Of a stretch of 64,000 bases of DNA, positions 54,888-57,462 are shown one piece after another. The stretch comes from an uncultured Planctomycetales bacterium (GTDB taxonomy: Bacteria > Omnitrophota > Gorgyraeia > Gygaellales > Profunditerraquicolaceae), in contig CAZRVK010000001.1 of the NCBI GenBank assembly GCA_964603585.1, positions 5,327 to 69,326 on the forward strand, written 5' to 3'. The notes under the pieces were generated by a model. The model saw nothing but the letters and a program-made list of their open reading frames with translations, made no database searches and was not told the DNA's origin. Made by a program: the position numbers and the translations under genes. Positions within the stretch are counted from its first letter, which is position 1; each line of letters starts with the position of its first letter.

Positions 54888-55994
54888 ATGCGCATAATTG
54901 CGATCACTAACCAAAAAGGCGGATGCGGCAAGACCACAACCTCAATCAATCTTTCAGCTACCTTAGCCGCAAACGGCCGGCGCGTGCTGCTTATCGATTT
55001 AGATCCCCAGGCTCATGCTACTTTAGGCTTAAACCTGGCACCAGAATTCAGTATTTATAACGTACTTTCCAAACTTACTAACAAAAAAGTCCGCCTGGCG
55101 GATATCATACTCAACGTTTCCGGCAATTTCGATATTGCGCCCTCCAGTATTGTCTTAAGCACCCTGGAACAGGAGTTAGCCGGAGAGATCAGCCGGGAAT
55201 CCCGCCTTTGGGAGATATTAACCAATTTTGAGGGTAAATATGACTATATCCTTATCGATTGCCCTCCTAACCTGGGTATTTTGACCATTAACGCCATCCG
55301 GGCAGCAGGGGAGATCATCATCCCGGTCGAAGCCAGCCGTTTTTCACTCGAAGGATTATCACAGCTGATCGATATCATAACCCTGATCCAGGACCGCCTC
55401 AAACATATGGTCAATTACCGTGTTTTAGTTACTAACTTTGATTCTCGGTTAAGGCATTCCTTCAAAATACTTGATTATATTAAAGCCACGTTCAAAAACA
55501 GCTTATTCAGCAACATCATCCATGTAAATGTCAAGTTAAAAGAAGCCCAGAGCCAGGGGACCCACGTGCTTAATTACGATAAATACTGCCGTGGAGCAAA
55601 GGATTACTTCAGCTTAGCCAGAGAGATCATAACCCAGGAGAACAGCTTAACGCCCGCTAAAGAAGAAAAAGATAAAGCTATTTCCCTTTCTGATAAAATG
55701 AAAAAAGCGATCAAAGAAAACCTGCCAAAATTAAACGAGCTTGTATTTTCCATAACTGCTCCGGAAGCAAAAGAAGTTCACCTCGTAGGAGACTTTAATA
55801 ACTGGCAATTGGGTGAAGAAAGCAACATGTCCCGAGATAACGGTGCTTGGACAAAAAGATTGCCGCTTAATCCCGGAAAATACCACTACCGTTTTGTCGT
55901 AGATGGCACCTGGATCGAAGACCCGGCTAATCCAAGAACCGCTAAAAACCCTTTTGGCCAGATGAATTCCTTGATCGAAATTGAGAATAAATAG
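54888..55994 (+). CDS. ParA/MinD-family ATPase fused to a C-terminal CBM48/AMPK-beta-like glycogen-binding domain
   Basis: Deviant Walker A ITNQKGGCGKTTTSINL and the ParA core to about residue 255. The C-terminal 85 aa VFSITAPEAKEVHLVGDFNNWQ...GKYHYRFVVDGTWIEDPANP is the CBM48/E-set glycogen-binding signature. RBS AAGGAGGG. Confidence 0.8.
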   Translation: MRIIAITNQKGGCGKTTTSINLSATLAANGRRVLLIDLDPQAHATLGLNLAPEFSIYNVLSKLTNKKVRLADIILNVSGNFDIAPSSIVLSTLEQELAGEISRESRLWEILTNFEGKYDYILIDCPPNLGILTINAIRAAGEIIIPVEASRFSLEGLSQLIDIITLIQDRLKHMVNYRVLVTNFDSRLRHSFKILDYIKATFKNSLFSNIIHVNVKLKEAQSQGTHVLNYDKYCRGAKDYFSLAREIITQENSLTPAKEEKDKAISLSDKMKKAIKENLPKLNELVFSITAPEAKEVHLVGDFNNWQLGEESNMSRDNGAWTKRLPLNPGKYHYRFVVDGTWIEDPANPRTAKNPFGQMNSLIEIENK

Positions 55995-56013: not shown

Positions 56014-56361
56014 ATGACCGATAACACCACACCTAAAACCGCATTACCAGAGGCAAAAGAGATCCATGAAGGAAAATTCTTAGCTTCTGTGGCATATTGG
56101 ATGATCTTATGCATCCTGCCGCTGTTACTGATGAAACACAACAAATTTGCCGTCTATCATGGAAAACAGGGTCTGGTCTTATTTATTATCTTTATCGTAG
56201 CCTTTATTTTAGGAACGATCCCTTTTTTAGGCTGGATCATTTTCCGCATCGTGTGCCTGACCTATATTTTATTGGCCCTTTGGGGCACATTCCAGGCTTT
56301 ATCCGGCAAATATAGCCGTATACCGTTTATCTCCAGGATCGCGGACAAAATAATACTTTAA
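56014..56361 (+). CDS. DUF4870-family small membrane protein
   Basis: FLASVAYWMILCILPLLL...FAVYHGKQGLVLFII...IPFLGWI pattern with 3 TM helices. Confidence 0.55.
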   Translation: MTDNTTPKTALPEAKEIHEGKFLASVAYWMILCILPLLLMKHNKFAVYHGKQGLVLFIIFIVAFILGTIPFLGWIIFRIVCLTYILLALWGTFQALSGKYSRIPFISRIADKIIL

Positions 56362-56373
56362 CAAAGGTTACCG

Positions 56374-56739
56374 ATGTCTGTTAAGAAGATGAAGAAAAAA
56401 ACAAAAAAATCCCAACTAAAGAAAAACAAACGTAAGTCCACTCTAAAGAAAACACCCGCCAAAAGGAAAAAACCGGTATCCAAAATAAAAAAACCGGCAG
56501 TTGTAGGGATAATTACGCATTACTTTCCCAAGGTAAGGGCTGCGGTAATAAAATTAAAGATCCCTCTAAAGATAAATGACAGAATAAAAATTAAAGGGCA
56601 TACCACCGATTTTTGCCAGAATGTCACTTCAATGCAGGTAGATAAGCAAATACTCACACAGGCTAGAAAAGGCCAAATCATCGGGCTTTTAGTAGATTCC
56701 CGGGTACGCCATCATGATATCATCTATAAGGAATCGTAA
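56374..56739 (+). CDS. lysine-rich (histone H1-like tail) protein with C-terminal EF-Tu-domain-2-like beta-barrel
   Basis: The first 45 aa are more than 50% Lys/Arg (KKMKKKTKKSQLKKNKRKSTLKKTPAKRKKPVSKIKKP). The C-terminus VVGIITHYFPKVRAAVIKLK...GQIIGLLV resembles the EFTu_D2 barrel. Confidence 0.5.
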   Translation: MSVKKMKKKTKKSQLKKNKRKSTLKKTPAKRKKPVSKIKKPAVVGIITHYFPKVRAAVIKLKIPLKINDRIKIKGHTTDFCQNVTSMQVDKQILTQARKGQIIGLLVDSRVRHHDIIYKES

Positions 56740-57462
56740 ATGACCTTAGCCATCAGCATCATCACTAAAAATGGAATCGCCTTTGCCGCAGACAGCCGGG
56801 TCACAAGCGGCGACCCCAGAGGCCCGACTACGGTAAACGATACCGTTAAAAAGATATTCGAGCTTGGAAACTCCTGCGGGCTGACAATCGCCGGGGACGG
56901 CGGATTGGGAGCAAGTATTATAGACCTTATATATTATGAGCTGCACAAAAATCCCGAATACCTGTATTTAAGCGTCGATGAAATGCTTGCGGTCTGCCGG
57001 GAAAGCGCGATAAAAAGATACAATGAGTGGTTTGGCGGGGTAAATTTCGAAGATCGACCTACATTACATATCATATTAAGCGGTTATCGTAAGGATATCT
57101 CGACGGCACGATTCATCGATGCCCCAGAAATATTTACCTTGCACAGCGAACGCAATTTTGCTCCGCACCGCTGGACATTATTGGGATTCATGGCAATCGG
57201 GATTACGCCACTGGCGACATATCTGTTAAACACTCTTTATTCAAGAGAAATCAGCTTAAAACACGGGCTGGAGCTTGCGGCATTGGCGATCCTTGAGACC
57301 GCATCCCAGGATGGTAAAGTCGGCAAGGATATTCAACTGGCTTCATGCTCATTGGAACAAAAATTCAATATCTATTCCCAAGATGAAACCTATGAATATA
57401 TCTATCAAGCGCAACGTCATAAGGAAAACCTGAAAAAAGCGTTCTATAACAAAGAAAACTAA
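56740..57462 (+). CDS. proteasome beta-subunit homolog (Ntn hydrolase, Anbu/BPH-like), orphan
   Basis: Thr immediately after the initiator Met (MTLAISIITKNGIAFAADSRVTSG), a conserved Lys about 35 residues later (TVKKIFEL), and GLTIAGDGGLGASII. 240 aa. Start ATG overlaps the upstream stop (TAAATG). Confidence 0.65.
   Translation: MTLAISIITKNGIAFAADSRVTSGDPRGPTTVNDTVKKIFELGNSCGLTIAGDGGLGASIIDLIYYELHKNPEYLYLSVDEMLAVCRESAIKRYNEWFGGVNFEDRPTLHIILSGYRKDISTARFIDAPEIFTLHSERNFAPHRWTLLGFMAIGITPLATYLLNTLYSREISLKHGLELAALAILETASQDGKVGKDIQLASCSLEQKFNIYSQDETYEYIYQAQRHKENLKKAFYNKEN

Follow-up and report, generated by a model that had tools for sequence, protein, structure and literature searches.

A lysine-tailed, free-standing EF-Tu-domain-2-like barrel across the Omnitrophota is a candidate RNA-binding protein next to a lineage-specific proteasome-like peptidase

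Introduction

Domain 2 of the translational GTPases is a small beta-barrel that also occurs outside these enzymes, and Pbp11 of Pyrococcus abyssi (Q9UZY3; PDB 7ANU) is the only characterised protein in which such a barrel is combined with a tail. In Pbp11 an EF-Tu-domain-2-like barrel carries an N-terminal tail of about 20 residues that is disordered and poorly conserved, and the protein binds the PAN-20S proteasome (PMC9540759). Total tRNA was shifted by Pbp11 only when the tail was present, and short single- or double-stranded DNA or RNA was not shifted (PMC9540759). In EF-Tu itself, residue E259 contacts the 3' end of tRNA (PMC9540759). Two members of the U32 family, TrhP and RlhA, act as whole proteins on tRNA and 23S rRNA (PMC6599085, PMC5727448).

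Neither Pfam nor NCBIfam contains a model for the free-standing barrel family, and literature searches for a prokaryotic "translation elongation factor-like protein" family returned eukaryotic papers only, while searches for lysine-rich Omnitrophota proteins returned none. We know of no cultured representatives of the Omnitrophota. Here, we analysed a 121-residue protein of this kind, P0001, encoded in a 64,000-nucleotide stretch of an Omnitrophota genome (hereafter the window), where its gene directly precedes a gene for a proteasome-like peptidase. A sequence-only reading of the window had likened the N-terminal part of P0001 to histone H1 and chlamydial Hc1, its C-terminal part to domain 2 of translation factors, and had proposed a functional tie to the neighbouring proteasome homologue.

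Results

The P0001 gene and its operon setting

The features of the locus are as follows, all positions being those of the window.

56363..56367, plus strand: AAAGG, putative Shine-Dalgarno-like motif read from the sequence, 6 nt 5' of the P0001 ATG
56374..56739, plus strand: P0001 gene, 121 aa, stop codon included (open reading frame list, translation and 762 homologues)
56374..56499, plus strand: residues 1-42, disordered polybasic tail (composition; pLDDT 45-65, no secondary structure)
56500..56736, plus strand: residues 43-121, EF-Tu-domain-2 / U32-C-type beta-barrel (pLDDT >90; fold matches)
56728..56732, plus strand: AAGGA, Shine-Dalgarno-like motif for the peptidase gene, within the last codons of the barrel gene (sequence)
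56740..57462, plus strand: P0002, proteasome-beta-like Ntn-hydrolase gene (Pfam Proteasome, E 8e-11)

The open reading frame is a real gene. Its intactness in relatives had been named as a test by the sequence-only reading, and no internal stops were found in the orthologues of the 244 out of 301 phylum genomes that carry it. The encoded protein has a pI of 10.9, and the tail-bearing copy is the only member of the P0001 family in this genome.

The upstream DUF4870 gene ends at 56361. At the downstream end, the TAA of P0001 (56737-56739) is followed directly by the peptidase ATG at 56740 (TAAATG, gap of 0 nt), so that the two codons abut, whereas an overlap had been read earlier; the AAGGA motif lies 7 nt 5' of this ATG. 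Junctions in the two other genomes with the peptidase (G119 and G242) read TAA-T-ATG and, with an overlap, TAATG. The genes between 54308 and 57896 are encoded on the plus strand, with spacings that range from a 14-nt overlap to a 53-nt gap. A promoter and terminator scan gave nothing beyond shuffle expectation, and no plus-strand terminator was seen in this interval, which would fit a single operon without proving it. Co-transcription of the genes for the ParA-CBM48 ATPase, the DUF4870 protein, the barrel, the peptidase and two small Cys-rich proteins is likely. The ParA-CBM48 ATPase gene occupies 54888-55994 of the window; sequences like its CBM48 tail occur in 260 of the 301 phylum genomes, the full fusion, in open frames of ~360-400 aa, is frequent within the class to which the window belongs, and many genomes have a separate CBM48-like open reading frame of ~100 aa.

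The N-terminal tail is disordered and strongly basic

The composition of residues 1-42 includes 19 K, 2 R, 4 S, 3 T and 3 P, and D and E are absent. Among the 6065 open reading frames of at least 60 aa in this 2.17-Mb genome, the tail holds the most basic 35-aa window (net +19), which indicates that its composition is not a habit of the genome. In the AlphaFold2 model, built with 24 homologues, residues 1-42 are coil with a pLDDT of 45-65. The resemblance to H1 and Hc1 noted from the sequence thus stands for composition and fails for homology, as no such family was matched in Pfam or NCBIfam.

Alignment of the orthologues showed tails that vary in length and sequence and are basic throughout. 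An N-terminal extension was present in 20/20 loci taken from different families, with a length of ~25 to ~250 aa; most extensions are Lys-rich, those of two loci of one family (L041, L051) are Arg-rich, and one is R/G/Q/P-rich. Two A7 runs, which are prone to slippage, lie in the tail-coding region at 56392-56410 of the window, and slippage in them may contribute to the length variation of the tail among orthologues. In many orthologues (among them L038, L039, L042, L037, L047, L041, L051 and L050) the tail is preceded by a hydrophobic-basic start (M-x-F-G-L-F-R-K-K or MGLFKKL...), which may be an amphipathic or membrane-targeting element; P0001 itself lacks this motif.

The C-terminal part is a predicted EF-Tu-domain-2-like barrel

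Residues 43-120 were modelled as eight beta-strands with a pLDDT >90, which, together with the coil of residues 1-42, bears out the two-part architecture that had been proposed. The barrel carries a net charge of +8. Motifs that do not vary within the family are THYF, GHTTDF, S-x-Q and SRVR-x-x-D, and the invariant columns of the alignment are T48, H49, Y50, F51, G75, H76, T77, T78, D79, Q82, S86, Q88, G100, G104, S109, R110, R112 and D115.

Foldseek ranked a Geobacillus U32 "peptidase" first, matched through its C-terminal domain (4HE6 and 4HE5; TM 0.84-0.89, rmsd 1.1-1.2), followed by dozens of EF-Tu, IF2, eIF5B and SelB chains that matched through domain 2, with a probability of 1.00 for many EF-Tu, IF2 and SelB chains. 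VIA, an independent all-against-all structural search, also placed 4he6 best (Z 15.9) and gave Z 10-12 for the domain 2 of translational GTPases (EF-Tu, SelB, IF2, eIF5B; rmsd 1.8-2.6 over ~80 residues). It further returned two free-standing archaeal proteins, Pbp11 (7anu_B; Z 11.5, rmsd 1.8, 76/86 residues) and PF0907 (4pgo; Z 10.6). By superposition, the P0001 model belongs to the EF-Tu-domain-2 / translation-protein beta-barrel superfamily.

Sequence comparisons were fainter. P0001 scored 12 bits (E 0.3) against Pfam GTP_EFTU_D2 (PF03144), whose gathering cut-off is 30.3; this cut-off was passed by the homologues P0123, P0137 and P0124, and P0225 scored exactly 30.3 bits. A profile built from 21 barrels matched domain 2 of aEF1alpha at E 3e-4 and that of eEFSec and mitochondrial EF-Tu at ~2e-3 (range to 4e-3). 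Judged by sequence, membership of P0001 in GTP_EFTU_D2 would therefore be transitive and not direct; with these profile matches and the two structural searches, the earlier recognition of a barrel of the EF-Tu-domain-2 type is upheld. PF16325 (Peptidase_U32_C) had no match in P0001 or elsewhere in the genome, and its threshold was passed by the relatives P0123 (43.9 bits) and P0229 (31.3 bits). The two U32-domain open reading frames of this genome lie elsewhere, and P0001 has no U32 catalytic domain attached. Against PDB sequences, phmmer found nothing for P0001 except MIF matches at chance level, and neither phmmer nor hmmsearch returned 7ANU, 4PGO or 1XE1 at E <= 10.

When the barrel was aligned to the EF-Tu of this genome with hhalign, the invariant Gln88 paired with the Glu of G-I-E-M-F, which we take to be E259 of E. 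coli EF-Tu. This alignment spans barrel residues 18-67 only and does not fix the register of the first strand, so that a placement of THYF on the EDVF pocket strand of EF-Tu was not adopted.

P0001 represents a phylum-wide family with tail-less relatives elsewhere

A word-indexed search returned 762 homologues, nearly all from Omnitrophota metagenome bins. Several of them are named "putative protease" by JGI, a name that derives from the likeness to the U32 C-terminal domain. The gene was found, mostly as a single copy and nearly always with a basic tail, in 244/301 sampled Omnitrophota genomes (~80%) and in 208/248 high-quality genomes; three families of the 301-genome sample (f14, f16, f18) lack it altogether.

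An exhaustive search of 1.84 billion representatives gave 3278 clusters at E <= 1e-3. Among the best 150 of these, 142 had a tail that reaches or exceeds 15 aa (median 71 aa, 40% K+R), and the others were tail-less proteins of 80-91 aa or two tandem double barrels. The 142 include ten other tandem-barrel proteins (the TIR-barrel-barrel proteins among them) in which the region before the first barrel is non-basic. The word index had yielded no longer, fused forms of the barrel; the tandem-barrel and TIR-barrel fusions came from the exhaustive search. A TIR domain followed by two tandem barrel copies was seen in P0125, P0172, P0229 and P0124, which suggests that TIR-type proteins, possibly with a role in defence, can use the barrel for sensing or for binding a ligand.

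Tail-less relatives of ~85 aa are annotated as "translation elongation factor-like protein" or "hypothetical". They are spread over Actinomycetota, Planctomycetota, Zixibacteria, WOR-3, Aminicenantes, Clostridia, Thermotogae, Deltaproteobacteria, Nitrospirota and DPANN archaea, and in Omnitrophota as a paralogue. They start with M-(A/E/P)-E-(E/K), and the barrel follows directly. One of them, P0234 (86 aa), is 43% identical to P0001 over the whole barrel (E 6e-22), and both forms share the motifs (T/S)HYF, GHT(T/S)D, S-x-Q and R-x-HD(-x-VYK). By its ~80-aa barrel, these motifs and pairwise similarity, P0001 belongs to the free-standing "translation elongation factor-like protein" family, whose Atlas clusters bear matching names. 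The net charge of the barrel is -9 to +3, mostly negative, in the tail-less proteins, whereas the median in the tail-bearing ones is +6.

In a tree of 79 columns, which has low resolution, the tail-less proteins formed a group (SH-aLRT 93) apart from the tail-bearing Omnitrophota proteins. Two proteins with a basic tail (L037 and L125, the latter from an archaeal MAG) fell inside the tail-less group, which suggests that the combination of tail and barrel was gained repeatedly. The L125 gene (L125:3776-4237), from a MAG labelled "archaeon", encodes a barrel with a K/V/P-rich tail of ~75 aa and represents either an independent gain of the tail or a binning artefact.

The neighbourhoods of 80 tail-less genes revealed no conserved partner: no gene was common to more than seven loci, and those that recurred were unrelated metabolic genes. 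In Planctomycetota, the open frame of tail-less genes extends upstream into a CPRCG...C-x-CG zinc-ribbon segment (L060, L072, L083, L110, L113, L122, L123, L133). This may be a real fusion of zinc ribbon and barrel, and P0365, P0375 and P0402 are called so.

The gene neighbourhood differs between Omnitrophota classes

In 27 related loci that lack the peptidase, the gene order is ParA-CBM48 - (DUF4870) - barrel - Rho_N-like small protein - zinc ribbon - DUF134. A different setting was found in another Omnitrophota class, where 22-23 of 23 loci from four families have the string RNase E/G ... barrel - Cys4 protein - CCA-adding/PcnB gene (L043, L045, L046, L048, L134-L152), with the barrel gene within 3.5 kb downstream of RNase E/G. 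The conserved Cys4 protein (CxxC...CxxC, ~105 aa) falls into no Pfam family, and the genome of the window contains no homologue of it. A conserved, uncharacterised protein of ~85-91 aa adjoins the barrel gene in seven loci (L033, L034, L038, L039, L040, L042, L045); its motif is LLGLG(F/L)D.KDGH.R.TKG.NF...GGS..TH, and Pfam gave no match for it.

The proteasome-like peptidase is a lineage-specific neighbour of the barrel gene

P0002 is the sole PF00227 match in the genome and is distantly of the proteasome-beta type. The peptidase was found in 3/301 phylum genomes (G000, G119 and G242, all of one family), compared to 244/301 for the barrel, so that the constant co-occurrence proposed as a check was not observed. 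The three genomes have exactly the gene order of the 27 loci described above, to which the peptidase gene is added after the barrel stop codon and before the ribosome-binding site of the gene that follows. Gene order thus shows that the peptidase gene was inserted alone into otherwise conserved synteny and is not part of the conserved unit.

A metagenome scan added 28 further loci with a peptidase of 74-91% identity and usable upstream sequence, and the barrel lay directly upstream in 28/28. All loci in which peptidase and barrel are adjacent come from one close lineage (74-100% identity) and therefore count as a single event. In ~30 loci with a more distant peptidase (34-55% identity), the barrel was absent within 2.5 kb in all, and a GIY-YIG gene of ~123 aa was found immediately upstream in ~30/~30, with a gap or overlap of 0-4 nt (for example L201:2128-3214 and L198:2131-3211; ~28 further loci in L191-L224). 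The peptidase family appears normally as a two-gene cassette of GIY-YIG and Ntn-peptidase, which looks undescribed. No GIY-YIG homologue is left in the genome of the window, which has lost or never received this gene. PADLOC gave a weak PDC-S14 match for the GIY-YIG protein of the cassette and no match for P0001 and P0002.

Barrels with and without an adjacent peptidase have the same consensus and show zero fixed substitutions, and we therefore rejected a co-adaptation of the barrel to the peptidase.

Discussion

We consider it somewhat better than an even bet that P0001 is an RNA- or tRNA-binding protein, a reading that we reach by analogy. An RNA ligand is favoured because of the EF-Tu-domain-2 fold, the precedent of Pbp11, the basic charge and the RNA-processing gene context in the other class. 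The pairing of Gln88 with the EF-Tu Glu, the action of the U32 proteins TrhP and RlhA on tRNA and rRNA, the probably repeated gain of basic tails and the presence of HU as a conventional nucleoid protein fit this ligand as well. P0001 represents a subfamily of the free-standing "translation elongation factor-like" barrels that is found throughout the Omnitrophota, in which the barrel acquired a long, disordered, histone-like polybasic N-terminal tail and its own surface turned basic. The ligand would be a structured RNA, most plausibly tRNA (at its acceptor end) or a ribosomal or precursor RNA. The tail may provide non-specific electrostatic affinity and the barrel the specific contact, as in archaeal Pbp11. 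Both the RNA ligand and this division of labour are inferred. The peptidase gene was inserted once behind the barrel gene in this lineage and probably rides on its transcription and translation. Several points speak against this reading. The similarity to Pbp11 and 4HE6 is one of fold without a sequence link, and the Pbp11 match (Z 11.5) is no better than that of any other domain 2. A lysine-rich tail binds any polyanion, such as DNA, polyphosphate or acidic proteins. The RNA-processing neighbours belong to a class other than that of the window and could reflect synteny inherited within one clade, while the neighbours in the window's own family (ParA-CBM48 ATPase, DUF4870 membrane protein, small Cys-rich proteins, DUF134) give no pointer to RNA. 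Finally, no conserved neighbours from which a function could be read surround the tail-less genes of other phyla.

An alternative explanation is that P0001 is a nucleoid-associated, histone-H1/Hc1-like DNA binder, in which the tail condenses or coats DNA and the barrel dimerises or contacts proteins. We regard this as unlikely, although the tail (rich in K, P, A, S and T, free of acidic residues and the strongest basic segment of the genome) has the composition of H1 and Hc1, the gene is phylum-wide and mostly single-copy, and, in the window's order, it probably shares an operon with a ParA-type ATPase, a class that uses the nucleoid as a matrix. Against it stand the lack of homology in Pfam and NCBIfam to Hc1, H1, HU or any other nucleoid-associated family, the presence of the conventional nucleoid protein HU in the same genome, and the three families without the gene. 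The known ligands of the barrel superfamily are tRNA ends and the ribosome, the analogue Pbp11 gave no shift of short single- or double-stranded DNA, and the RNA-processing context in the other class points away from DNA as well. The ParA-type ATPase also raises the idea that P0001 is an ATPase-stimulating, ParB- or McdB-like partner of ParA-CBM48 acting through its basic N-terminal tail, since basic N-terminal peptides are typical of the partners of ParA-like ATPases. The ParA-CBM48 gene is found upstream within one gene string in 27/30 loci from the window's family or its close relatives, as well as in certain other families (L032, L041, L049, L051). However, presence and absence of the two are decoupled at the family level (f12, f15, f17 and f23 have the barrel without a CBM48-type match, and f14, f16 and f18 show the reverse), in many genomes the two genes lie on separate contigs or tens of kb apart, a DUF4870 gene often stands between them, and the barrel sits among RNA-processing genes in the other class. 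We rejected this partnership on the family-level decoupling and consider it extremely improbable.

The tie to the proteasome homologue, in which P0001 would be an adaptor, regulator or substrate of the peptidase and might, for example, guide it to tRNA- or ribosome-bound complexes in the way suggested for Pbp11 and PAN-20S, is in our view quite unlikely. The tight junctions in 3/3 genomes (a 0-nt gap, a 1-nt gap and the TAATG overlap) and the barrel directly upstream in all close-relative metagenome loci would fit such a partnership, as would the binding of Pbp11 to PAN-20S (PMC9540759). A swap of partners is also conceivable, since the distant peptidases are coupled to a nucleic-acid-related GIY-YIG gene of similar position and no such gene is left in this genome. 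However, adjacency after an insertion is expected even without a functional link, the adjacent loci amount to one event in one lineage, the barrel shows no fixed differences with or without the peptidase, the peptidase is confined to three of the genomes and the barrel is not, and the contact of Pbp11 is the PAN ATPase. From the distribution of the two genes, the insertion into existing synteny and the GIY-YIG pairing elsewhere, we infer that the core function of the barrel is independent of the peptidase. As a general role, the link that made the locus attractive was thus mostly mistaken; a lineage-specific link may nevertheless exist, given the Pbp11 precedent and the consistent position of the barrel upstream of close peptidase relatives. 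A combination of both ideas, which we rate as distinctly improbable, would make the tail-barrel protein an Omnitrophota-specific, abundant part of the translation apparatus that, in the lineage of the window, additionally recruits the orphan peptidase to tRNA- or ribosome-bound substrates. P0001 would in that case be a ribosome-associated or tRNA-3'-end binder made from a liberated EF-Tu domain 2 and a histone-like tail. Its link to the peptidase would then parallel, in bacteria, that between Pbp11 and the proteasome and might serve the quality control of nascent chains.

Returning to RNA or tRNA as the preferred ligand, the analysis yields a concrete hypothesis, namely binding of tRNA or another RNA that depends on the tail. 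The presence of the gene in ~80% of the searched phylum genomes makes it likely that the tail-bearing barrel is an important RNA-handling protein of the Omnitrophota. Free-standing EF-Tu-domain-2 barrels form more than 3000 sequence clusters from many bacterial and archaeal phyla, and one distant structural analogue, Pbp11, has been studied. As a by-product, the usual two-gene GIY-YIG cassette of the proteasome-like peptidase family was revealed.

Comparison with known systems

Pbp11 (7ANU) and PF0907 (4PGO/1XE1) resemble P0001 as small monomeric proteins with a disordered tail and an EF-Tu-domain-2-like barrel of six to eight strands. The likeness to Pbp11 is one of fold and architecture alone, sequence similarity being undetectable, and the tails differ in length (~20 aa in Pbp11, 42 aa in P0001 and up to ~250 aa in its relatives). 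Pbp11 is confined to Thermococcales and binds the PAN ATPase, whereas the neighbour of P0001 is an orphan beta-type subunit in one lineage only. The best structural match, the U32 C-terminal domain (PF16325; 4HE6/4HE5 of Geobacillus thermoleovorans), is fused to a catalytic domain in the U32 proteins, while P0001 is free-standing and has no PF16325 match. Domain 2 of the translational GTPases (EF-Tu, aEF1alpha, SelB, IF2/eIF5B) has the same fold and weak profile homology; P0001 has neither a GTPase domain nor a domain 3, and the aminoacyl pocket of EF-Tu is made jointly with domain 1, which is absent in P0001.

Histone H1 tails and chlamydial Hc1 and Hc2 share with the P0001 tail a lysine-rich, acidic-free segment of low complexity, but they show no sequence homology to it (Pfam, NCBIfam, E <= 1) and their folded domain differs. 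The tail-less "translation elongation factor-like" proteins have the same barrel and motifs as P0001, but no tail, a mostly acidic charge and a separate group in the tree. Compared to all of these, P0001 stands for a phylum-wide, uncharacterised subfamily of the free-standing EF-Tu-domain-2 barrels that combines a long polybasic tail with a basic barrel.
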